Shown in pieces: positions 3,698 through 21,597 of a stretch of 64,000 nucleotides of DNA. Position numbers and translations under genes: made by a program. The stretch lies in IMG/VR virus record IMGVR_UViG_3300042348_001285, one strand, 5' to 3'. This DNA comes from a virus. Taxonomy: Duplodnaviria > Heunggongvirae > Uroviricota > Caudoviricetes. Under the pieces are notes generated by a model. The model saw only the letters and a program-made list of their open reading frames with translations. It did no database searches and was not told the DNA's origin. The first letter of the stretch is position 1; every line of letters begins with the position of its first letter.

Positions 3698-4993
3698 TTA
3701 TTCTACAATGATTAAATCATCAGATAGTGCTAAGTATTCTTGATTCATGCAAGTATCAGGGGTCATCCACAGGGTCGAATAATTATCCACTTGCTCGTAT
3801 AGGTTAATCAAGTTGTCATCCCATGGCCTTGTAAGCCATTCTGCAATGGGTTGGTAATCTGCATTTACTGATTCTCTGATGTCAAAAATTTTCTTTACTT
3901 CATAACTCGGGGAAATATCAACTTGAGCAAGTTTACAGTAAGTAATCGGAACTTCTTCTCCCGCACTATTAATTACTGTAGATGGCAGACTACCCAGTGG
4001 GTGAGCAACAAGAGATACTTCTGATTTACCCGTAGACGGTTTCCTCAGGAGGGAGATAGTCCCTGAAACAGAAACAGACTGTATGGAAATTTCGGGGTCA
4101 GACCACTCGATCTTCCAACCAGTATTAAAGGTAGGTATTGCAATTTGAAACGTAAAGAATTGACCTATACTATCCCTACTAACTTCCACTGTTTCCACAA
4201 AAATCCAATCTGGATTAGGGCAGTATGGGCTATTAGGGTCCGGTTGTCCAGGGTTATCAGGATCTTCGTTAAAACAGTTGGTTATAGATAGAGTGGCGCT
4301 ACCCGTAATTACAGTGTCAGGTGGACAACGGAAAGTTATCTCAGAAAAAGAAGCCGCCCTGGGGAATTGCCAGTATAGGTACGGCGCCCCAGAATAATAT
4401 GGAAATACTCCATCGTAATTTCTCCATTCTAAGGTCGTATCATCGCAAAAAGCATATTTAGGTGCGAACCTCCACCCTACCTCAGAATCTGTGCCACTGA
4501 CGACATTCATTTCGTGACCAGATAGGGAATAATTCTCTACAGAGTACAAAGCATAGAAAGGGGAATCGTCATAGGTCAATCTATAAGCTATCAAATATTG
4601 GGAATCAGCCATCCCTACCAGTTCTAAATTTATAATGACTGGGCCTATGGAAAGATTACCGTGCTCCCAAACTACGGTTCCAGGCTTGATGACTAAAAAT
4701 TTATCACCTCCTGATGCAACAACTTCCAGGGAATTAGGGCCAAACGGACTTTCCCCAGGCGGTAGATACACATAAGCAGACTTCCTATCTAGTCCAAAGT
4801 CAATATAGTATCGTTCTGATGCAGCAGGTAACCTACCATAAATAGGTCTACCACCTGGTACCCATTCAGTGGGTGTCTCAAACAGGTTATTAGCCTCTTG
4901 AAACTGAACGGACAATATAGTACCAAATGTAGGATTAGAAGATGTTTGAATTTCCCCCCTGCCTCCATTTAAAGGCGTGATAATCTGGCTCAT
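3698..4993 (-). CDS. Putative baseplate/tail protein
   Basis: 431-aa ORF overlapping the baseplate J stop. A central beta-rich segment (LYWQFPRAASFSEITFR...GWKIEW) resembles a discoidin-like domain. Confidence 0.45.
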   Translation of the reverse strand: MSQIITPLNGGRGEIQTSSNPTFGTILSVQFQEANNLFETPTEWVPGGRPIYGRLPAASERYYIDFGLDRKSAYVYLPPGESPFGPNSLEVVASGGDKFLVIKPGTVVWEHGNLSIGPVIINLELVGMADSQYLIAYRLTYDDSPFYALYSVENYSLSGHEMNVVSGTDSEVGWRFAPKYAFCDDTTLEWRNYDGVFPYYSGAPYLYWQFPRAASFSEITFRCPPDTVITGSATLSITNCFNEDPDNPGQPDPNSPYCPNPDWIFVETVEVSRDSIGQFFTFQIAIPTFNTGWKIEWSDPEISIQSVSVSGTISLLRKPSTGKSEVSLVAHPLGSLPSTVINSAGEEVPITYCKLAQVDISPSYEVKKIFDIRESVNADYQPIAEWLTRPWDDNLINLYEQVDNYSTLWMTPDTCMNQEYLALSDDLIIVE

Positions 4994-7900
4994 AGACTTA
5001 AGGTTCCTTCTTTATAGTCAGGCGGTTGGTAGGGGAAAGTAGTCCCAGTATACCAAGAGAGTTGGGGAACATCTGTATTGGAACTGGGGTTCTCCCATAC
5101 ATAAGTGATTTCCTGGTTAGAGTTGGTAAATCTCCCCGTATTACGTGGCACTAATGTTATTTGAGCTACGCCTAATTTAATCGAGGAGGTCTCCAGTCCA
5201 AATTGAGAGATAATTTCCTCTTCACACCGGTAAAAAGAGACGTACCTCAGTAGGTTATCGGCAAATTCTTCGTATCTGGCCGTATTGGTGACTGTCATGT
5301 TTGTCCAGTTGGTCACCGTTGTTTGAGGTGTGAATGCTCTCATTACCCTATAGATATTCCTACCATCTTCTGCTATAAGGGTGTCCTCTGCGTATTTGAC
5401 ATACTCCGGATTAAAATATGGGACGTATGCCCGGGGGTCAAATTCGTTTGTTCCAGCTTCTGAGGAGTCTATGAAAATACCATTTTTGTAGTAAATTGAA
5501 AAGTCAAATAAGGGGCTTACGCTAGATGTGGCAGTATAGGATTTTACCGAATTACCATTTCTAAAGTAGGTTCTGTCCCCCCTATAGAAGGTAAACATCC
5601 TGACAAATGTATTTATTTCCGTCAGCCGGGGGTAAAGAGAGGTTATTTGGATTTGGAAGCCACTACCAGTACCGCCCAAGTAACTATTATCTATAGTCAG
5701 GACATCGCCAATTGAGTACCCCCTTCCAAAATCAGATAACTCGTAGGAAATAATTGTATTCCCTGAGACTACCAAGTTAATAGATCCGTTGACCCCAACC
5801 CCATTGATTGGGTTGCTATATATTAAAGGTAGGTTAGTATAGGTACCGTTTCGGTAACCTGACCCCCCGTTTACCAAGTTGGTCGTCTTTATTCTGCCAG
5901 ATACGCTATTATTTACTAGGTCGTCTAATTGCGACCTTAGCTCGAATGAAGGTGCAAGGTTGATCACTGAGCCATCATTGATTAAGTCCTGAATAGATGA
6001 GCTGCTTGGTGTGAAGTACTTGGCGGCAATACAATAGGTAGGGGTCCCACCTGAAACTTCCCTGTATTCTAAATACTGCCCACATTTGAATCTAGGTTTG
6101 TATTTGTAAATGGGTAGCCCGCCATTGCCATCTAGTACGGACACTTCTCTTATAATGCCTTGCTTTATTAACTCGCTAAAGTAATCTACGGTTAGTGCCC
6201 CATTGGGTCCGTAAGTAAAAGGTGCAATTACATAGGCGTACTTATTGACAGCCCCTTTCGTTACGTCCACATAGTTATAATGGGGGTCAGAAACAGCATC
6301 CGGACCGCTCCCAACCTGTGGTGTATAAACCCAAGTTCCTGCTAAGTAGGACTGACCTTCAACTAGTTGATTGTAATTATTCGGCAAGCTAGAATTTAAA
6401 GCTGGTCCTATTTTATTTTCAGTCTGGGCCCCGGTAATGTCATTAGTAGAAGGGAATAAGATAAAATTCTGAGCTACCAGCCAAGCTAATCTTCCGACAG
6501 TAGTGGTAGGTAGGAACTCACCGTCTGAGTAGTCATACTCAACGATTTCTGGGTCTATTGTTGTCCCCAGTGAATATTGGTAAGAGTTATTTACGACCCA
6601 TGCAGAATAAGTCTTTGCTGAAGAAATTTTTCCAGCTACAAAAGCACTGGGGATATCTGCTGAAGATCCAATCACTATATTTTCAAGGACTACGAATAAT
6701 TGATTATTGAAGAACACAATGTCCCCCAAACTGTATCTACCGGCAGTGAGTAACTTTATTTGCTTTAAAGCAAGATTACCGTACACAGTTTGGTCGAATT
6801 TGTTCGTTGAATAGGGGCTATACGCTACTTCTACTGGGTAGTATGATGGGTTAGGGTTATTAACTACAATGAGATCATCACTGTTTAAAATGGTATTTAC
6901 GGGTTCAAAATCATATACATTAGTATAAATAGCAGCGTCTTTACTCAGAAGGACAGGGGTATTGTAAGCTGCGGAGTAGTTAATTTGAGGGTCTTTGAAC
7001 CTGCTGATAGAATCAAAAGTATTATAAAAAGCGGCATCAACATCACTTACGGCTGGGTTCGTATCAGTTGGGAAAACATTTCCAGGGGTCAATACTGTGG
7101 AGAGCCTATCCCTAAAATTCAAAGTTACAGGCTGATAATTAGACCCATAGATACCATTGGCATCAACTTCAAGAGTGATGTTATATTGAGTTTGACTTAG
7201 AGTAATGGGGTACAAGTGGGCTTGATTTTCAATAGGGATCGAAAAGTTAATTACATTCTGACCCCTTCTTATTTGGTCATCTGTTAATTCTATACCATTG
7301 GGCCCAAGCACAAAGAAAGAAACTTGTCCATTGGGCTTCGTAAAATCAGACAGATAATTATAGCCTAATCTACTACTTCTATTGGGTTGAACAGAAGTCA
7401 GAGTCCCTAAACCAAACATATCTATGAAGAAGTTCTCCCAGTCTGCCTGGCTAACGGGATTCCTGCGTCTGATTAGGGAGAAAAACCTTTCTTGGACTTG
7501 AGCATATGTTTCTACATCACTGCCTCCTACCGCAGGTTCTGGGTTAGTTGCTACGGTGCTAGCTTCCCCGAGGTCCGGGGGGCCGGTAATTGAATTAGCC
7601 GGGACATTATAGATGTTACCTACAAATTTAGAATAGACAGGGATTTCAACTTCGGTCTTACCGGCAGGTATTGTAACGCTGTACGAGCTTATATATTCAA
7701 ATCCTTGGCCGCCGGATAATTGGGGGTTGGATGTAAATACAGACCCGGATGGTACCGACAAGTCTGAATTTCTTGGTGCTATTGACAACCTAACCAAAGC
7801 TGTAGCAGGGGTACCTAGTCTCCTTAGGGCGCCTAAAAATGGGCCTATCCATTCGATGAGAATCTTGTTTGGTAGTTGATTAGCCCAAAATAAAAATTCA

Positions 7901-9128: not shown

Positions 9129-12100
9129 TCAGGACAAGATGTTGGTGATCATAGCTCCAGAACCGGTAAGACCAGATGCACCGAGGCCAACCAAGTTAAC
9201 CACACGTTCGATGGTGATTTCAGCACGCACGACACGGCGTTCGCGAATGTAGTACTCCAATTTGTTATCGTAAAGGCTCTTTATCCCTTGCTTCTGCATG
9301 TTTCTATGCAGTTCAGACTATATCATCGTTTTGTAAACAAAACGTCAGGCGCTCGTGGATTGTTCACCTGTTCTAGGCTACTTAATCTAGTCGTTGAACC
9401 TTGCTTTTATCCCTAAAAGCCTTGGCTGCTGATTGCCTTGTGTTTCAAGGAATTCACTCCTGAAACCGTCAGGTTTCCCAGCAATTCACCTAATTTCTTT
9501 TTATGTCAGACCCCAGTAGTTAAGGACGGACAGCGGGTGTTCCTGTGAGTTGATCATTTTTGTTAGCGTAAAGGTTATTTATCCTTCACTTCTTTACATT
9601 TCTGCAAAGATCAGACTATATCTTCTTCCTTGCCTTGTGTTAAAGCTAAGGAGTAGGGCGCTCGTGGAGTTTTCATCTGTTCTAGATTACTAACTCTAGT
9701 CGTTGAACGTTCGTTTTCTCCCGAAAACGCTTCGCTGCTGATTACCATAGCGTCAAACTTTCGTTTGAAGCCGTAGGCTTCCCAGCAATTCACCCCATTG
9801 ATCTGCGGATCAGGCAGATAATTTGACGTTACCGTCAAACCACGCATTCAACTCGTTTGAAAGAAACGATGTTATTAACATACGTGTCGATTATGTTATC
9901 GTAAGGCTCTTTATCCTTACTTCTGCATGTTTCCATGCAGTCCAGACTATATCATCTTATTGTTTCTTTTAGTTCGTATCACTGATTCCCTTATTTTAAC
10001 CTTTTGCTCCTCTGACATCTTGTCATTCCCGTTTTTTCTACGGGTTTCCCAAGCTCTTTTTGCAGCTTCCACTGCTTTGGGGGTCTTGGTTCCAGCTGGA
10101 CCACAGTTATAGGGCTTCCAGCCGGAGGCAATAAGCTTCTTTTTACTTTCACTTTGCTTCTTACGAGTTTCTTCGGAAGCAACAGGGTTTCTTTTGTACT
10201 GGTCTAAGAACCGGGTGGTTCTAATAGTTCCGGTACTATCCCTAAGCGTTCTACACACGGCCCAAGCATCTTTGTAGTGCCGGGTAGCTTTGTACAGAAG
10301 CAAGTGAGCTATAGCATGCTCTCTAGGAGTTAAAGGTACAAGGTTGACAGGGTGGTCCCACTTTTTATAGTGTTTAGGCAATATGTGATGCCTATGGAAC
10401 CCTTTCTTTTTACAAGTCCAGTTTCTTATAGACTTATAGTGAAGAACTAATTTAATATACCGTCTACCATAATGGTTATCGGGTATCCAACAATAAGGAA
10501 GGCTTTCGTGGAGATTTTCTATCAGGGTTAAGAGCATCTCTAGTCGTTGAACGTTTGCAAACAAGTTTTACCCTTTGTTTACACTTCGCTGCTGATTGCC
10601 CAATCTTAAGAAGTTTTTAACTATCACGATTACCCTTTCAGGTTGCGTTGTAGTCTCTTAAGCTCTAAGGGGTTTCCAGCAATTAACCTTCTTTTACTTG
10701 CGCTACACAGTTTCTTGTGAATGAAACAATGTTATTCAACGCAAAAGCAGGAGTCGCAGCATTAGCACCACCCGCAGGCATGATCGAATCAGAAGGGCCG
10801 TTGGGGCTGTAGAACAGGAGGATGCCATTGGCGGGGAAGACAGGCTGCAAGGAGCCGTCGTTGGCCAAATAACGCCCTTCAGCTACGCGCAGGCCACGCT
10901 CAAGACCGAAGTAGCGAGCGATGACATCTGTGTCGATGCTATTGGCGGAGGTGTATTTGATACGATCAAGGATCGCTTCGTTGGTCAGCAAGAGGTCGAA
11001 AACCGAAGTTCCAAGAACAGCGGAGTTCGGACGAATGCCGATCTGGTTGGCAACAGCACGCTTCAGAGTCAGGATGTCCTCAATGGGATTAGAGGTTGCA
11101 CCAGACCATGCGGCAGGGCCAGTGGCTGTGCCATAAGCGGTGTTGAAGGCGGTCCAGGTTGTAAAACCAAGACCAGTTTGTGAGCCAGGAGTCCCATTGT
11201 AGGGCTCGTATGGATTGTAGCTGCCAGTCACTGAAACAGCTTGAGCAACGGTGTACTCGTAGCTGTTCATTCATTATGTTATCGCGAGGGCTCTTTATCC
11301 CTTGCTTCTGCATGTTTCTATGCAGTTCAGACTATATCATCGTTTTGTAAACAAAACGTCAGGCGCTCGTGGATGGGTTATTATTTTCGGTATTCACCAT
11401 CTAGTCGTTGAACCTTTTGACTACAACTCTATTATAGCATAGAGTCCGAAATAGTCAACTTGGCTGCTGATTGCCTTGTGTTTCAGAGAAGCCACTCCTG
11501 AAACCGTCAGGGTTCCCAGCAATTCACCCAATTTTCTAAATGAGATTAATCTCATAGGGCCAATGTGTTTAGCCTAGACATCGCATTGCGAGTCTCGATG
11601 GCGCGTAGCATTTGTTAACTCAGCGGCTCTTTATCCACTGATTCATTACCTTGTCGTTGGTAATGTTCAGACTATATCATAGCATTGAAAAAGTTTTCCA
11701 GTCTTGGTCCTCGTCTGGTATCCACTTATTCCCCTCTGGACAGAGGGATTTAAGGTCTCCATTAAAGGCTTTGACGATATTTGACAAAGTTTGAGAGTTC
11801 GGGGTACCTGTAGCTTTGGCTAGCCTTAGGCAACCGCTACTTCCCACTTTTCTAGGGATAAATTGATAGTGAAAGTAAAGATAGTCTGCAATCTTCCAAA
11901 GGTCTCGGGTTTTACTTGACGCATTGTTATTATCCCAAGGTTTACAGACTAAGGATGGGTTATTTAGTCTCCCTCTCCCCCCGCATCCAACGGCAAACCT
12001 GTAATCTTCAGTAACGTAGGGTAATCCAGTTTTTCCCTTATTGTGGGGAACGGACCTACTGTTCATGAAATTTTTCCAAATACTTGGAAGATTTGTGGCT

Positions 12101-15100
12101 ATGGATGTTTTATTTTTCCCCCTACCAAAATGGTCTAAAAATCTCTTTAAGGAATAAGATTTAAACAGACCTGACTTCACCAGTAAAAGATGAAGTATAA
12201 AGTGTTCCCTAAATGTAACCCCAACCGTCCAAATTACCAAATGGCTTCTCCACCCATCCGGCCAAATTTCTTTGGGTACAGGGTGATGGCACTCATATTG
12301 TTCTGGAAGTTGGCATCTTTTCTCAAATTTGTCGATTAAACTCCAATACCACTTTTCATATTTATTATGATAGTGGCACTCAATGCCCCGGGCGCTCGTG
12401 GATGGGTTATTATTTTCGGTATTCACCATCTAGTCGTTGAACCTTTTGACTACATTCCCATTATAGCATGGGGACCGAAATAGTCAACTTGGCTGCTGAT
12501 TGCCCACGCGGGGGTTCCAGCAATTCACCCGGTTTATAGTGGACCTACGCTGCGATCGAAATCGTCCGTAAAAAATAATCCACTTGTGCAGGCAAAATGT
12601 TGTTACCGTACGGGCTCTTTATCCCATACTTCTCCATGTTTCCATGGAGTTCAGACTATATCTTTGCCCCACCGTTAAGCACGGTAAGACATCAGGCGCT
12701 CGTGGAGTTTTCATCTGTTCTAGATTACTAACTCTAGTCGTTGGACCTTGCTTTTATCCCTAAAAGCCTTGGCTGCTGATTGCCTCTTTTGCGTAGCAAA
12801 AGTAAGGTGTCCCAGCAATTCACCCAATTTTTAGTGACCTTTGTCACAAGGAAGGCCCTTACAACCTTCCCCTGCGTTTTCAATAACCTCTTCCAAGGTT
12901 GTTATCACAAAGGCTCTTTATCCTTTGCTTCTGTAAATTTACCATCTTTACAGTTCAGACTATATCACCGTCTATACCCTCCTATAAAGGTTAGTCAGAC
13001 GTAAGGCGCTCGTGGAGTTTTCATCTGTTCTAGATTACTAACTCTAGTCGTTGAACGTTCGTTTTCTCCCGAAAACGCTTCGCTGCTGATTGGCCATTAA
13101 GTTGGAGGCTTTCCAGCAATTCACCCTATTATTCTTACCGCGCTAACTAGGCAACGGCAAGGCCCAAAGATTTAGGCAATTCCCATGCGACCACTTCCTG
13201 CTCCAGAGCGTAGGGCTCAGAGTCGTAACGGCTTTGGACGTAGGGGATGTTTGTCATTTGTTATCGCAAAGGCTCTTTATCCCTTGCTTCTACATGTTTC
13301 CATGTAGGTCAGACTATATCTTTGCCTTACATTCTTATGTAAGACATCAGGCGCTCGTGGAGTTTTCATCTGTTCTAGATTACTAACTCTAGTCGTTGAA
13401 CCTTGCTTTTATCCCTAAAAGCCTTGGCTGCTGATTACCATAGCATCAAACTTTCGTTTGAAGCCGTAGGCTTCCCAGCAATTCACCCAATTTATTTACG
13501 GCACAAACTAATTACCGTAAGCACGACGGAAGTCGTTAATAGCAACACCATGTTATCGTAGAGACTCTTTATTCCCTACCTCTGCATGTTTCTATGCAGT
13601 TCAGACTATATCATCGTTTTGTAAACAAAACGTCGGGCGCTCGTGGACGAGTTATTGTTGTCGAAACTCATCGTCTAGTCGTTGAACCTTTCCACTACAG
13701 AAATCATAGTGATTCCTCGACGCAGTAGACTTGGCTGCTGATTTCCCTCGCCTTTACGTTAGGGGTTCCCAGCAATTCACCCAATTTTACAACAGCAAGC
13801 TATTTACTGTTCCTTACCGAATCTCAATATTCTACCAGCTCGGGTAGGTGTGTCCACAACTGGTGCGATAAACACTTGTTACCGTGAGAGAATTTATCAC
13901 TCACTTCTTACAGTTTCCTGTAAGTTCAGACTATATCATCATCTTCCTTAAACGTTTTAACAACGGTTTTTAGAGATTGCCAAGTGTTACCTAATTTTGT
14001 TATCCTATGGAGCCTTCTGGCACCACACTTTCCGTTTTCTGCCCAGGCTCTATGCAAGACATCTAAGTTAGACCAAACTTCTTTATCTGCGCGAGGGTTA
14101 TTAGCCCCCGTTCGATCTCTGTCTGGGTTATTAGCTGCTTGTATTGCAAACTGGATGGTAGGATTACTTATGGCTCTGTCTCTAAGTTTTTGTTTTGACT
14201 CTTCACTCCAAGCCCTATTTTTACATCTCTCTGCGCGAGCAGTTCTTTCTTCGTCAGACATTGGGACTTTCCTGGGCCTAGCTTTTCCTTTATTGGACTT
14301 GCTAATTTTGACTTTAGTTTCTTCGGAGTGCCCGTGGTGAGCCACCTTTTCGTAAACCCGTGAGTTCTTTGAAGACTTTTTGAAAGAGTTTATAGCTTTA
14401 CCCAGTTTCTTCACGGAACTGAAAGCTAAAGCTAATAAACAATGGGATATATAGTGCTCTCTGTAGGTAAGTTTAACTAGGTTGGCTTCATCGTTTCCAC
14501 CCTTCATGCACTTGGGCACTATGTGGTGAATATGGAAACCACCCTCTTTGACCAAACCTCTAGAGGGGCGAGAGTTAATAAACTTTACATACCGTTGGTA
14601 ATGTAAGGGAGAGTCGGGCGCTCGTGGAAAGATTATTCTTGGGTCAGTCACTTTCTAGTCGTTGAACCTTTTTACTCATTGTTACCCCTATTATATCGGG
14701 TAACTGCCCAAAGTAAACTCGGCTGCTGATTGCCTTGTGTTCCAGAAAAGTAGATTCTGAAACCGTCAGGTATCCCAGCAATTCACCCGATTTTCAATCA
14801 GAGTTGCCTCTGAAGGGAACCTTATCGATTCGCAATGTTGGTAGACGGTAGCATGAAACCTTGCGCGAGGGTGGTGAGACATTTGTTAACGTAGAGGCTC
14901 TTTATCCCCTACCTCTCTTTGTTTCCAAAGAGTTCAGACTATATCACCGTTTTGTAAACAAAACGCCCGGCGCTCGTGGAGTTTTCATCTGTTCTAGATT
15001 ACTAACTCTAGTCGTTGAACCTTGCTTTTATCCCTAAAAGCCTTGGCTGCTGATTACCATAGCGTCAAACTTTCGTTTGAAGCCGTAGGCTTCCCAGCAA

Positions 15101-15733
15101 TTCACCGGATTTTCTTTGTTAAAAACAAAGCCACTCCTTTAAATGGGCAATATGTTATCGCAAAGGCTCTTTATCCCTTGCTTCTACATGTTTCCATGTA
15201 GGCCAGACTATATCATCATCCTTTAACTCCCATGCTGAGGAGTCAAGGAGCTGGGCGCTCGTGGATTGTTCACCTGTTCTAGGCTACTTAATCTAGTCGT
15301 TGAACGTTCCGTCAATCCCTTGACGGCTTCGCTGCTGATTGCCTCTTTTGCGTAGCAAAAGTAAGGTGTCCCAGCAATTCACCCAGTTTTCTGCCATCAT
15401 TAAAATGACAGGGACCCTAATTAATCCACACCTGCGTAGGTCTGTTGTAGCATTATGTTATCGTAAAGGCTCTTTATCCTTCACTTCTTTACATTTCTGC
15501 AAAGATCAGACTATATCATCATCTTTGCCTAGGCAAAGAGTCGGGCGCTCGTGTCAGCTTCATTACTGTTCTAGTAGTATGCTGTTAGTCGTTGGACCTT
15601 GCTTTTATCCCTAAAAGCCTTGGCTGCTGATTACCATAGCATCAAACTTTCGTTTGAAGCCGTAGGGTTCCCAGCAATTCACCCAATTTTCATCCCAAGG
15701 TTACCCTTGAGCGGAACCGCCATGATTCATCAT
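9129..15733 (-). CDS. Major capsid protein, 351 aa, 14 exons interrupted by 13 group I introns
   Basis: Exons in transcription order: 15733-15725, 15450-15424, 15147-15143, 14879-14828, 13872-13806, 13545-13514, 13254-13174, 12893-12864, 12592-12578, 11608-11571, 11271-10739, 9887-9882, 9554-9523, 9257-9129. They sum to 1056 nt (352 codons, no internal stop): MMNLQQTYAGVDPILTTLAQGFMLPSTNIANFIAPVVDTPTRAGRILRFGKEQFAINDFRRAYGTNIPYVQSRYDSEPYALEQEVVAWELPEEVIENAGEGPAQVDLRAIETRNAMSRLMNSYE...ATPAFAYTYQLTGTPAVRPEYYIRERRVVRAEITIERVVNLVGLGASGLTGSGAMITNILS. It follows the protease and decoration genes, and its size fits a capsid protein. Family call by resemblance and position, not by search. Confidence 0.9.
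9258..9522 (-). mobile_element. Group I intron 13 (265 nt, no ORF)
   Basis: P/Q/R/S present. P1 CCU/GGG; P10 AGUA/UACU. Splicing restores AVRP|EYY. Confidence 0.88.
9555..9881 (-). mobile_element. Group I intron 12 (327 nt, no ORF)
   Basis: P/Q/R/S present. P1 CACGU/GCGUG uses the 6-nt exon; P10 UCAACUC/GAGUUGA. Confidence 0.92.
9888..10738 (-). mobile_element. Group I intron 11 (851 nt) with HNH ORF in P8
   Basis: P/Q/R/S present. P1 UUGCGU/GCGCAA; P10 ACAC/GUGU. Confidence 0.92.
9947..10537 (-). CDS. Intron-encoded HNH homing endonuclease with NUMOD3-like repeats
   Basis: FHRHHILPKHYKKWDHPVNLVPLTPREHAIAHLLL, SEETRKKQSES and MSEEQKVKIRES. Likely start is ATG 10537 just after R (the track starts at 10564). 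Confidence 0.85.
   Translation of the reverse strand: MLLTLIENLHESLPYCWIPDNHYGRRYIKLVLHYKSIRNWTCKKKGFHRHHILPKHYKKWDHPVNLVPLTPREHAIAHLLLYKATRHYKDAWAVCRTLRDSTGTIRTTRFLDQYKRNPVASEETRKKQSESKKKLIASGWKPYNCGPAGTKTPKAVEAAKRAWETRRKNGNDKMSEEQKVKIRESVIRTKRNNKMI
11272..11570 (-). mobile_element. Group I intron 10 (299 nt, no ORF)
   Basis: P/Q/R/S present. P1 GGCU/GGCC; P10 AAUG/CAUU. Confidence 0.9.
11609..12577 (-). mobile_element. Group I intron 9 (969 nt) with HNH ORF in P8
   Basis: P/Q/R/S present. P1 GUGGAU/GUCCAC; P10 CUACGC/GCGUAG. Confidence 0.92.
11677..12429 (-). CDS. Intron-encoded HNH-like homing endonuclease
   Basis: YECHHPVPKEIW...VTFREHFILHLLL (HNH-like). The C-terminal segment resembles that of the intron 4 ORF. 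ATG immediately follows the R element. Confidence 0.8.
   Translation of the reverse strand: MVNTENNNPSTSARGIECHYHNKYEKWYWSLIDKFEKRCQLPEQYECHHPVPKEIWPDGWRSHLVIWTVGVTFREHFILHLLLVKSGLFKSYSLKRFLDHFGRGKNKTSIATNLPSIWKNFMNSRSVPHNKGKTGLPYVTEDYRFAVGCGGRGRLNNPSLVCKPWDNNNASSKTRDLWKIADYLYFHYQFIPRKVGSSGCLRLAKATGTPNSQTLSNIVKAFNGDLKSLCPEGNKWIPDEDQDWKTFSML
12593..12863 (-). mobile_element. Group I intron 8 (271 nt, no ORF)
   Basis: P/Q/R/S present. P1 GGAAGGU/GCCUUCC; P10 CCU/AGG. Confidence 0.92.
12894..13173 (-). mobile_element. Group I intron 7 (280 nt, no ORF)
   Basis: P/Q/R/S present. P1 GCCU/GGGC; P10 GAAGA/UCUUU. Confidence 0.9.
13255..13513 (-). mobile_element. Group I intron 6 (259 nt, no ORF)
   Basis: P/Q/R/S present. 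P1 UUACGGU/GCCGUAA; P10 ACAAAC/GUUUGU. Confidence 0.92.
13546..13805 (-). mobile_element. Group I intron 5 (260 nt, no ORF)
   Basis: P/Q/R/S present. P1 AACAGU/GCUGUU; P10 GCUA/UAGC. Confidence 0.9.
13873..14827 (-). mobile_element. Group I intron 4 (955 nt) with HNH ORF in P8
   Basis: P/Q/R/S present. P1 GAAU/GUUC; P10 UUUAUCG/CGAUAAG. Confidence 0.9.
13926..14651 (-). CDS. Intron-encoded HNH homing endonuclease with NUMOD3-like motif
   Basis: FHIHHIVPKCMKGGNDEANLVKLTYREHYISH (HNH) and HSEETKVKISKSNKGK (NUMOD3-like). The stop codon lies in the intron S element. Confidence 0.88.
   Translation of the reverse strand: MTDPRIIFPRAPDSPLHYQRYVKFINSRPSRGLVKEGGFHIHHIVPKCMKGGNDEANLVKLTYREHYISHCLLALAFSSVKKLGKAINSFKKSSKNSRVYEKVAHHGHSEETKVKISKSNKGKARPRKVPMSDEERTARAERCKNRAWSEESKQKLRDRAISNPTIQFAIQAANNPDRDRTGANNPRADKEVWSNLDVLHRAWAENGKCGARRLHRITKLGNTWQSLKTVVKTFKEDDDIV
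14880..15142 (-). mobile_element. Group I intron 3 (263 nt, no ORF)
   Basis: P/Q/R/S present. P1 CCAU/GUGG uses the 5-nt exon; P10 UCU/GGA. Confidence 0.88.
15148..15423 (-). mobile_element. Group I intron 2 (276 nt, no ORF)
   Basis: P/Q/R/S present. P1 GGAU/GUCC; P10 CC/GG; terminal G. Confidence 0.88.
15451..15724 (-). mobile_element. Group I intron 1 (274 nt, no ORF)
   Basis: Core elements on the minus strand: P GAATTGCTGGGA, Q AATCAGCAG, R GTCCAACGACTA, S GATATAGTC. Terminal G. P1 is exon GAAU with IGS GUUC. P10 is weak. Confidence 0.85.
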
Positions 15734-15854
15734 AATAGATGATTTCCTTTTCTAGGTTGACTTCAAAGATTGCGTTGGCAATCTAACCCAAAAGTCCGAA
15801 AACTTCGGGGTCACTGTAGTTATACCCACACTTTGCTAATGGAAGCCCAACCAT

Positions 15855-15880
15855 AAAAAAGGAGCCCCTTTCGGAGCCCC
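15855..15880 (-). terminator. Rho-independent terminator between decoration gene and capsid gene
   Basis: GGGGCTCC-GAAA-GGGGCTCC (8 bp with two G.U pairs) followed by TTTTTT. Confidence 0.75.
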
Positions 15881-19824: not shown

Positions 19825-21597
19825 TTATTTTTTACCCTTGACCTTGTTTTCCATCTCTGATATTATAGAGTCTAATTCTCCATCGGAAATTCCACTTGTG
19901 GATTCGGTCTCATTTGCCTCTTCCTCAGGGAGTTCCCCCGGTTCGGATTCCCCTGGTTCTTCAGCCAATGCAGAGTCTAACTCGGATAGTAAGGAGTCTA
20001 ACTCTTTGTTGGCTTTGCTATTTTTCTTTTTTGGTTGCTTTTCTACAGGGGGTTGCTTTGTTGGAGTTTCTTCATTCGGAGTCATCTCATCCGGGGTTTC
20101 TTCAGTTGGGGTCACCTCAGCCGGGGCCATCTCATCCAGGGTTTCTTCAGTCGGGGTCGTATCATCCGGGGTTTCTTCACCCTGAATTCCCTCATCCGGG
20201 GCCCCTTCATCTGGGGCCACCTCATCCGGAGTCATCTCAGTGGTAGATCCAAGGGGCCCTTCAGCATCCCCACCCGAACCATCTTCTGGACCGAAAATCG
20301 ACTCATATAGGTTCTTATCCTTTTCAGGGTCAAACGTAGTTTCACCTTCGCTACCCTGTTGGCCTTCAGCAGATTTGGCCTCATCTTCTAAATCAACTCT
20401 AAAGTGCCTCTCAATCCATTCTCTACGGGGTTTGAAACCATTTTGAATCAATAGGGAAACATCAGCGGGTGTCAGTTGGGACTCCTCAATTCTGAACTCC
20501 CTAGTTAAGGTCGGAGATGCAACATCAGCACCGAAATTTAAATCTACAATCCACCTTACCAAAGTTTGAGTTAGTTGATGACAGATCATTTCTGATATCT
20601 CAGATGCCCTCACCACTCGAACTACGTTAGCAACCATCGACGAAGCCCTGGAACCAGACTCAGCCTGCCCAGCTTCATTTTCACCGCAAATCAGAAGGCT
20701 AATGACTTTATCTAGGTAGTCAATCAAGCCTTTAAACACATCGGGGCTACCTTCAGGGTTAATAAAATCCAATACGAACCCTTCAGGTAAAACCATCGCG
20801 GTCTCTTGGGATAAATTTGAGATCATCCCATAAATATTATCGATTTCGGCTGTTGATGCACTTAGGGGGGCAGTTGCTACGGTAGTCGGGGTTGCATATC
20901 TGTCACCATAAAGGACATAAGACTCTAATGCCCTCCTCCTAAACTTCACCAGGGGGTATAAAATACGACCAATCGAAGAACCATAGGGATCCCCATTATG
21001 CTGAGTCCAGTACCTATTGATGATGAATTTACGCGCAGGTAGCTCGATACCTTCAAACATCCTGTTGAATGTCAAGCAACGCATTGTAAAACCTGTTTGA
21101 GAATCCTCAGCTTCTTGGAAGACAAATCGGCGCTGGTCTCTAACTCGAACATCAAATGGGATGACACCCCGCTTGGTTTTCTTCCACATTACTTCCGCAA
21201 CACTGAAACCAACAATTAAGGCTTCGGCTAAGCCTTTGAAAATATCGTCTATTGGCAACTCCTCTAAAACTTCTGCTACAAAGTCCCTGACGGCTAAATC
21301 CCCAGGTTTATCGCTGTATTCCTGAACATACCATGGCCTAGACGTAACTTCCTGGAGCAACTTAGAGTAAGAACCCTGGACTTGTTCATCCAATAGCAAC
21401 CTTTGGTAAGTTGATAATGCGCGATTACCTCCCTTTTGGATTAGTAGGTCGTCATTAGGGCGAACAATGCTGGAACCAGTCCCCGTAAAAGGAGAGCTAG
21501 AACCAAACATGTAAATGGAACTAAGCGCATACGGGTTACTGATGTACGAGCTTATTTCACCGGTTGGGACAGGCGATGTCTTAAATCTTTTGGCCAT
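19825..21597 (-). CDS. Portal protein (DUF935/Mu gp29-like)
   Basis: GLAEALIVGFSVAEVMW, NGDPYGSSIGRILY, YGDRYATP, GSRASSMV and PTLTREF motifs, then an acidic C-terminal repeat tail. Confidence 0.85.
   Translation of the reverse strand: MAKRFKTSPVPTGEISSYISNPYALSSIYMFGSSSPFTGTGSSIVRPNDDLLIQKGGNRALSTYQRLLLDEQVQGSYSKLLQEVTSRPWYVQEYSDKPGDLAVRDFVAEVLEELPIDDIFKGLAEALIVGFSVAEVMWKKTKRGVIPFDVRVRDQRRFVFQEAEDSQTGFTMRCLTFNRMFEGIELPARKFIINRYWTQHNGDPYGSSIGRILYPLVKFRRRALESYVLYGDRYATPTTVATAPLSASTAEIDNIYGMISNLSQETAMVLPEGFVLDFINPEGSPDVFKGLIDYLDKVISLLICGENEAGQAESGSRASSMVANVVRVVRASEISEMICHQLTQTLVRWIVDLNFGADVASPTLTREFRIEESQLTPADVSLLIQNGFKPRREWIERHFRVDLEDEAKSAEGQQGSEGETTFDPEKDKNLYESIFGPEDGSGGDAEGPLGSTTEMTPDEVAPDEGAPDEGIQGEETPDDTTPTEETLDEMAPAEVTPTEETPDEMTPNEETPTKQPPVEKQPKKKNSKANKELDSLLSELDSALAEEPGESEPGELPEEEANETESTSGISDGELDSIISEMENKVKGKK
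20060..20240 (-). repeat. Imperfect 15-nt (5-aa) tandem repeats in the portal C-terminus
   Basis: TPDEV/APDEG/APDEG/TPDDT/TPTEE/TLDEM/TPTEE/TPDEM/TPNEE. Boundaries approximate. Confidence 0.7.

Follow-up and report, generated by a model that had tools for sequence, protein, structure and literature searches.

The DNA analysed here is a stretch of 64,000 nucleotides (nt; hereafter the window) from a member of the Caudoviricetes, recorded in IMG/VR as IMGVR_UViG_3300042348_001285. It belongs to an uncultured freshwater phage; Synechococcus phage S-CBWM1 is its nearest relative in culture, and its closest complete relatives have genomes of 277-279 kb. A gene on the minus strand, running from position 15733 down to position 9129, had been predicted from the sequence to be a major capsid gene split into 14 exons by 13 group I introns. 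Our results indicate that it is very probably a single functional capsid gene of the Phage_cap_E family, colonised by 13 mobile group I introns that all belong to one family.

Thirteen group I cores within the capsid gene

Three core words, AATCAGCAG, CAACGACTA and GATATAGTC, occurred in exactly 13 minus-strand copies each in the 64-kb window, all of them within 9129-15733, and a fourth word, GAATTGCTGG, was present in 12 exact minus-strand copies plus one carrying a single mismatch (TAATTGCTGG, in intron 11). No copy of any of the four was found on the plus strand of the window, nor on its minus strand beyond the capsid gene. The Rfam group I model (RF00028) gave 13 non-overlapping minus-strand matches within 9258-15724, 11 of which reached or exceeded the gathering score of 50 bits (range 50.0-93.7), and it matched nowhere else in the window. 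Motif counts and model matches therefore both bear out the 13 cores of the original prediction, and each of the introns was found to hold a complete core with all the conserved segments.

To assess the secondary structure, 28 introns devoid of an open reading frame (ORF), taken from the window and its relatives, were aligned and analysed with RNAalifold. Of the 43 pairs predicted, 31 keep pairing despite two-sided changes, and these are located in P3, P4, P5, P6, P9, P9.1 and a hairpin between P7 and P3', P7 itself being invariant in this alignment and hence uninformative on covariation. In intron 11, P3 is altered on both strands in a compensating manner (GAAG/CUUC versus UUGG/CCGA in the other introns). 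The covarying hairpin, placed between the 5' strand of P7 and P3' (alignment columns 234-246), constitutes an extra helix which suggests that these introns may be IA-like. The ten ORF-less introns of the window share 52-80% pairwise identity and are old paralogues rather than fresh duplicates. Similarity to phage DNA in GenBank was confined to core stretches of 65-80 nt in introns of Bacillus, Streptococcus and Staphylococcus phages. These data confirmed that the 13 interruptions of the capsid gene are genuine group I introns with intact cores.

The joined exons and their junctions

The exon map was assembled manually, using the P1 helices together with the conserved tails at the 3' ends of the introns. 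Once joined, the 14 exons form a 1056-nt ORF that encodes 351 amino acids (aa) from the ATG at 15733 to the TGA at 9129 and accounts for 16.0% of the 6605 nt of the gene. The reading frame put forward in the original prediction was thus reproduced, and the two junction peptides quoted there were both found in the spliced product. An alternative map of 363 aa, with an exon 1 of 24 nt and an exon 7 of 102 nt, in which P2 hairpins had been mistaken for P1, was rejected because it left two alignment gaps against gp175 of S-CBWM1.

Comparison with related capsid genes gave the exact position of the junctions. An independent IMG/VR contig (L015) carries a fully intron-free allele at 4177-5232, to which the spliced mRNA of the window aligned without gaps over 1056 nt with 95% nt identity, and its protein (P0002) matched the window product at 347 of the 351 residues. 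This gapless alignment fixes all 13 junctions to the nucleotide, including those of the micro-exons, and the exon map proved to agree with it to the base. The nearest record examined (L014, which is the 103-kb sequence G001) shows 2 aa differences over 351 residues and contains nine introns, two of them at sites without an insertion in the window; introns 1, 5, 6, 7, 8 and 11 are absent from it, and its sequence is contiguous across the corresponding junctions. Relative to the intron-free allele of L015, 43 codons of the window differ synonymously and 4 nonsynonymously, and no stop was found in any of the spliced ORFs checked, showing that the joined capsid ORF is under purifying selection. 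The mechanical ORF list of the window holds only fragments of this gene, which fits the earlier statement that gene callers miss it.

Splice signals

As had been described, each of the 13 upstream exons ends in T (U in the RNA) and each of the 13 introns ends in G. A guide G situated 7-36 nt inside each intron pairs with the U at the splice site (U.G) and is accompanied by 3-8 further pairs with the own exon, so that in 13/13 introns P1 comprises a total of 4-9 exon-guide base pairs, the U.G included. P10 pairing averaged 3.6 bp with the own 3' exon, compared with 1.2 bp for the other exons. The pairing proposed originally, of each guide with its own 5' exon and usually with its 3' exon, was hence recovered for P1 in every intron and for P10 as a clear difference in averages. 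These counts refer to P1 and P10 at fixed positions, which are the informative ones, and not to the matrix from a free search; a search for guides anywhere in the 5' region of the introns was noisy and ranked the own exon first in only 6 of the 13 cases. An in-frame stop codon was located 0-18 codons after every 5' splice site.

An intron with a different terminal nucleotide was observed among the relatives, in which insertion sites are designated here by their position in the spliced mRNA. The ORF-less, 277-nt intron at site 93 of L014 (5772-6048), L016, L017, L018 and L046 appears to end in A (...GTATATTA|TTCATAGCA). This junction was placed by P10 pairing and by the conserved protein segment ..IAN|FIAPVV.., and no alternative G-terminated junction of this intron keeps the frame in these relatives.

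Identity of the capsid gene and genome context

The largest exon, exon 11, scored 36.4 bits against the Pfam family Phage_cap_E (PF03864; cut-off 22.9) and matched the PHROG family phrog_1005, annotated as 'major head protein', with an E value of 1.2e-22; the product of the intron-free allele scored 33.7 bits against PF03864. The spliced product is 66% identical from end to end to gp175 of S-CBWM1 (E 2e-177), which is annotated as 'major capsid protein' and encoded by an intron-less gene. In the PDB it matched 3bjq, a 'phage-related protein' (E 5e-28), and a profile search recovered this entry alone.

All the large ORFs of the window (1-64000) are on the minus strand. Genes for a Mu-type portal and for a protease-scaffold protein are located upstream of the capsid gene, and a tail-tube-like gene lies directly after it, this gene order matching that of gp174-176 in S-CBWM1. 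The portal (19825-21597) shows 59% identity to that of S-CBWM1 and about 32% to the portals of S-TIM5-like marine cyanophages, which supports a cyanophage affinity, and the putative host is deduced from it. A second capsid gene was found neither in the window nor in G001, nor in the complete genomes of two relatives, G002 (279 kb, with terminal repeats) and G003 (277 kb). The Pfam and PHROG matches, the alignment with S-CBWM1, the gene neighbourhood and the single copy agree in identifying this gene as the major capsid gene, as had been proposed.

Exon-intron map

The features described in this section are all on the minus strand and are given in 5' to 3' order, with scores in bits referring to RF00028. 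A terminator-like hairpin followed by a T-run (15861..15880; an 8-pair stem with 6 G-C pairs, then TTTTTT) lies upstream of the capsid gene and divides it from the preceding gene. A sequence resembling a ribosome-binding site, AAGGAAA (15743..15749), could be read 9 nt upstream of the ATG at 15733. Exon 1 (15725..15733; 9 nt) encodes MMN and is joined to exon 2 in L014 and L015. It is followed by the ORF-less intron 1 (15451..15724; 274 nt, mRNA site 9; 93.7 bits; P1 GAAU|C..GGUUC), with 94% identity to the intron at the same site of L018. After exon 2 (15424..15450; 27 nt), intron 2 (15148..15423; 276 nt, site 36; 87.1 bits) shares 98.6% identity with the same-site intron of L046. Exon 3 (15143..15147) is a 5-nt micro-exon, CCCAT, required for the segment ..VDPILTT.., which the intron-free allele P0002 has in identical form and which is also conserved in S-CBWM1. 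Intron 3 (14880..15142; 263 nt, site 41; 86.8 bits) is again most similar to an L046 intron at the same site (98.5% identity), and is separated by exon 4 (14828..14879; 52 nt) from the first of the long introns.

This intron 4 (13873..14827; 955 nt, site 93; 50.0 bits; 92% identity to the same-site intron of L044) bears in its P8 region an ORF of up to 241 aa for an HNH-type homing endonuclease (13926..14651; phrog_655, E 4.9e-32; Pfam NUMOD3). Exon 5 (13806..13872; 67 nt) precedes intron 5 (13546..13805; 260 nt, site 160; 93.2 bits), which is 100% identical to the same-site intron of L046, has no P2, forms P1 as AACAGU|AA..UUGCUGUU and occupies a site at which L014 and L015 have no insertion. 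Exon 6 (13514..13545; 32 nt) is followed by intron 6 (13255..13513; 259 nt, site 192; 93.0 bits), whose site is empty in L014. The end of exon 7 (13174..13254; 81 nt), at ...TTGCCT, was fixed by the gap arising in the S-CBWM1 alignment and by contiguity in L014 and L015. Introns 7 (12894..13173; 280 nt, site 273; 64.4 bits) and 8 (12593..12863; 271 nt, site 303; 85.9 bits), the latter with a 9-bp P1, flank exon 8 (12864..12893; 30 nt) and are 96% and 99% identical, respectively, to the same-site introns of L018.

Exon 9 (12578..12592; 15 nt) is followed by intron 9 (11609..12577; 969 nt, site 318; 46.8 bits; 79% identity to the same-site intron of L020), with an endonuclease-like ORF of 250 aa (11677..12429) that matches phrog_655 at residues 22-85 only (E 6.3e-7). 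Between exon 10 (11571..11608; 38 nt) and the large capsid-domain exon 11 (10739..11271; 533 nt), from which the capsid family matches given above were obtained, lies intron 10 (11272..11570; 299 nt, site 356; 86.9 bits). Intron 11 (9888..10738; 851 nt, site 889; 43.3 bits; 91% identity to the same-site intron of L047) carries the third such ORF, for an HNH-type homing endonuclease of up to 205 aa (9947..10564; phrog_655, E 1.1e-18; phrog_12434 (HNH), E 4e-7). Exon 12 (9882..9887) is a 6-nt micro-exon, ACACGT, joined to exon 11 in L014 and L015, which yields the segment ..AFAYTYQL.. in agreement with S-CBWM1. Intron 12 (9555..9881; 327 nt, site 895; 81.9 bits) is located at a site where relatives have endonuclease-bearing intron forms of 910-950 nt. 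Exon 13 (9523..9554; 32 nt), intron 13 (9258..9522; 265 nt, site 927; 82.8 bits), with 99.6% identity to the same-site intron of L019, and exon 14 (9129..9257; 129 nt including the TGA stop) complete the gene.

Endonuclease genes and mobility across relatives

The ORFs of introns 4, 9 and 11 all belong to the HNH homing-endonuclease family phrog_655 and are located between P3' and P7'. The weaker match of the intron 9 ORF may indicate that it is degenerating. The three ORFs extend into the 3' strand of P7 (GATATAGTC) at 13926-13937, 11677-11679 and 9947-9953, and their stop codons fall in or just past that strand, with an offset from the motif that differs each time; in intron 4 the stop codon is just past it. 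Motifs resembling sigma-70 promoters (TTGACT, a 16-nt spacer and TATAAT), identified as consensus matches only, were noticed on the minus strand at 12460-12487, 11431-11458 and 14690-14717, in the P6 extension of introns 9, 10 and 4, respectively, with a TG extension in introns 9 and 10. In introns 9 and 4 the motif is immediately upstream of the endonuclease ORF, and that of the ORF-less intron 10 may be a relic.

The distribution of these introns was analysed in 80 related loci obtained from an IMG/VR scan, using a spliced dynamic-programming aligner, which had beforehand recovered the intron map of the window itself; 204 introns were mapped in all. Among the 51 complete alleles, 23 had no intron and another 23 had from 1 to 6, whereas the others contained 9, 10 and 11 introns and, in two cases, 13; one of these two 13-intron alleles belongs to the complete 279-kb genome G002. 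Sixteen insertion sites were identified (mRNA 9, 36, 41, 75, 93, 150, 160, 192, 273, 281, 303, 318, 356, 889, 895 and 927), and 11 of them are occupied by both short (about 260-370 nt) and long (740-1020 nt) intron forms. Ten ORFs of long forms, covering 10 of these 11 sites, were tested and all of them matched phrog_655. Repeated rounds of homing, decay of the endonuclease and loss of the intron are expected to leave such a coexistence of long, short and empty forms of a site. Furthermore, the positions at which the window differs from its close relatives are concentrated at mRNA 101-150 and 851-950, adjoining the endonuclease introns 4 and 11 (15 nt differences at mRNA 101-150, within exon 5), and these clusters look like co-conversion tracts.

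Many contigs of this lineage (L021-L028, L037 and others) have an end that coincides exactly with a capsid intron site, mRNA 94 being one example. Intron-rich alleles are probably under-represented among the complete contigs because assemblies break at the repeated introns.

Relations among introns

Across genomes the introns cluster mainly by site, with exceptions. One intron lineage, whose members are 89% identical along their full length, was located at site 9 in L031 but at site 93 in L029, two sites that have only GAAU in common before the cut, and GUGGAU is common to sites 36 and 318. Intron 10 is a mosaic, its best match being to the site-281 intron of L014 over a stretch of 174 nt (98.9% identity); introns at its own site, 356, also exist in relatives. 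These relations suggest that site switching may be led by the short guide together with recombination between intron copies. By extension, one ribozyme chassis could have multiplied within a 1-kb gene through guide matches of 4-6 nt, by a process resembling reverse splicing and not homing, with its guide and peripheral modules being recombined, to produce at least 16 site-specific ribozymes that splice coordinately around exons of 5-6 nt. We put this forward as a tentative scenario, plausible but short of probable.

Interpretation and alternative explanations

According to the mechanism that we favour, the pre-mRNA would start after the terminator at 15880-15861, and each intron would fold and excise itself by two transesterifications, in which the upstream exon would pair through its 3'-terminal 4-9 nt with the guide (P1, with the U.G at the cut) and the terminal G would set the 3' site, often aided by P10 pairing to the next exon. 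Ribosomes entering unspliced RNA would be halted by the early in-frame stops, and the 351-aa capsid protein would be encoded only by RNA freed of all 13 introns. At the DNA level the introns would behave as homing elements, three of them with HNH endonuclease genes here, and nearly every site has its endonuclease-bearing, ORF-less and empty form across the population. The load of 13 would then represent the present state of many independent cycles of invasion, decay and loss, combined with recombination between copies. We infer that splicing occurs and is efficient and that the endonucleases drive homing, and in our reading this essential late gene is a hotspot for mobile introns and not a designed regulator. 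The original prediction had also raised the possibility that capsid output depends on Mg2+, guanosine or temperature. Nothing in the present data supports this, and near-identical phages exist without any of these introns, which points to the introns being selfish mobile elements and not a regulator built into the gene.

Several observations weigh against a functional gene interrupted by 13 autonomous introns. Self-splicing of 13 ribozymes on a single bacterial mRNA has, to our knowledge, never been demonstrated. Introns 9 and 11 remained below the cut-off of RF00028 (46.8 and 43.3 bits; E 1.2e-9 and 1.3e-8, respectively), a result attributable to ORF inserts of about 600-700 nt, which are present in these two introns and in the 50.0-bit intron 4, and the ORF of intron 9 matches the endonuclease family weakly. 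Guide GGUUC is common to introns 1 and 4 and guide GGUCC to introns 2 and 9, so that mis-pairing and exon skipping are conceivable. With regard to the capsid assignment, an AlphaFold2 model built from 15 close homologues reached a mean predicted local distance difference test score (pLDDT) of 33.8, the HK97 fold thus being proposed from sequence evidence, and this genome might conceivably have another capsid gene beyond the 64 kb analysed. Finally, some P1 helices contain only 4 exon pairs, and there is hardly any space in the 5- and 6-nt micro-exons for the P10 of one intron plus the P1 of the next.

These last two features would fit a removal of the introns that is not autonomous, in which some of the 13 would need the assistance of RNA chaperones, of translation of the exon before them, of a phage or host protein cofactor or of the folded core of a neighbouring intron, and maturation would be cooperative or ordered; at the micro-exons, adjacent introns have to share the same few nucleotides for P10 and P1. 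Nevertheless, all 13 introns possess a complete core of their own, and none of the ORFs resembled a maturase, those within the introns being HNH endonucleases, and we consider such assistance unlikely, if far from negligible. Somewhat less probable still is an adaptive role of the intron load, either as a timer or throttle tied to GTP, Mg2+ or temperature, or as an endonuclease weapon against co-infecting intron-free relatives. The latter would have a precedent in phage PhiPA3, whose intron endonuclease reportedly gives an advantage over a co-infecting relative (PMC11620839). Intron-free and intron-rich alleles with 95-99% identity occur across lake metagenome contigs and would provide targets if their phages co-infect, and the sigma-70-like motifs just upstream of two endonuclease ORFs would also be in line with this role. 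However, the 23 of 51 complete alleles without introns encode nearly the same protein, which indicates that the introns are dispensable; endonuclease genes are present in only 3 of the 13 introns here, one of them a weak match, and no condition-dependent element was found.

The low Rfam scores of introns 9 and 11, and the mere 79% identity of intron 9 to its nearest same-site counterpart, could also be taken as signs of a defective allele, in which at least one intron no longer splices, and hence of a dying or helper-dependent variant. We regard this as very improbable, given that the ORF inserts explain the low scores, that the introns retain intact core motifs, the deviating P3 of intron 11 having compensating changes on both strands, that the joined ORF is intact and differs from its relatives mostly by synonymous changes, and that a complete 279-kb genome with terminal repeats also has 13 introns. 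As for an assembly chimera, the introns are repeats of 52-80% identity and many related IMG/VR contigs end at intron sites, so an assembler might have joined different phages at these repeats. Yet 12 of the 13 introns found their best match in the same-site intron of an independent assembly, with 79-100% identity, L016 and L017, from different samples, have an identical 13-intron layout, and the joined exons form a perfect ORF; the likelihood of a chimera is in our opinion minimal. A functional capsid gene colonised by mobile introns is therefore the explanation that we retain.

Comparison with known systems

Group I introns in phage genes are textbook knowledge and are counted in ones to threes per gene. 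The classical mobile examples are those of td, nrdB and nrdD in T4, of the DNA polymerase gene in SPO1 and of the lysin gene in a Streptococcus thermophilus phage. The introns of the window resemble them in ribozyme class, in the peripheral-loop location of the endonuclease ORF and in their presence/absence polymorphism, and short core stretches are 87-91% identical to introns of Bacillus and Streptococcus phages. The classical introns, in contrast, occur one or two per gene, mostly in genes of DNA metabolism or photosynthesis. A late gene of Staphylococcus phage Twort, orf142, reportedly contains three group I introns (an observation ascribed to Landthaler and Shub, in 1999), and nrdE of the same phage is reported to have two introns (Landthaler et al. 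2002). The Twort genes are similar to the present one in having several group I introns of the same family in one phage gene, some of them with endonuclease ORFs, but orf142 has three introns instead of 13, is not known to contain micro-exons of 5-6 nt and has no reported population range from 0 to 13.

Capsid genes in pieces are also known from other viruses. In the crAss-like Zeta group, the capsid gene of cMAG OLRF01000054 is split into five fragments by four interruptions (Yutin et al. 2021, PMC7886860), and 14 introns per whole genome were termed an unprecedented density in that work. As in the window, a major capsid gene of an uncultured lineage is fragmented by group I introns and hard to annotate; the crAss-like phages are, however, an unrelated lineage from another habitat, whereas here 13 introns are placed in one 1056-nt coding sequence. 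The major capsid gene of Faustovirus E12 has 13 exons and 12 introns, with exons down to 13 nt; 5 of the 12 introns are group I and the rest spliceosome-like, their average length is 1.3 kb, and GIY-YIG endonucleases are encoded (PMC6247863). The number of pieces is similar and some introns likewise have homing endonucleases, but Faustovirus is a giant virus of eukaryotes, while in this bacterial phage, without a spliceosome, all 13 introns are group I. The Jug jumbo gut phages contain an average of 18.5 group I introns per genome of 360-400 kb, with terL in 2-3 pieces and splicing supported by metatranscriptomes (PMC12880540); unlike here, where the introns are concentrated in one gene, theirs are spread genome-wide, with far fewer per gene. 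Cluster J mycobacteriophages are reported to splice an intron in the capsid gene (PMC3706429). In S-CBWM1 (L094; MG450654.1, 111225-113321), the annotation of psbA joins three pieces and includes two group I introns, of which one has a homing endonuclease, the capsid gene being intron-free, unlike that of the window. The paper on Pseudanabaena phage PA-SR01 describes only a homologue of an intron endonuclease and no split capsid gene. We found in the literature no description of this lineage, nor of more than 4 interruptions in one phage gene, nor any published phage gene with 13 introns. The 13 group I introns in a single 1056-nt phage coding sequence are a new extreme variant, unmatched by the published cases found.

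The most abundantly needed virion protein would in this phage depend on 13 ribozymes acting on one bacterial mRNA, with two exons shorter than any P1 plus P10 footprint. Sister phages with nearly the same protein and from 0 to 13 introns represent a natural experiment, in which the cost of introns, homing cycles in the wild, seeding by reverse splicing and the avoidance of mis-pairing and exon skipping are testable. In practical terms, the capsid gene escapes standard gene callers here and contigs break at the repeats during assembly, and capsid-based surveys of lake phages will consequently miss or mis-place this abundant lineage.

Additional group I elements in relatives

In the complete genome G002, 13 of roughly 16 introns are located in the capsid gene. 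Three further group I matches are clustered in another gene at C1:20378-21454 (L095), about 52 kb from the capsid gene; psbA was considered as a candidate for this gene and rejected, as the ORF translations did not resemble PsbA. At site 75, which is empty in the window, L044 (5758-5972) and 12 other loci contain a group I intron of 215 nt, which is devoid of the P9.1 hairpin and has the variant core words AACTGCGG and AAGATAGTC.

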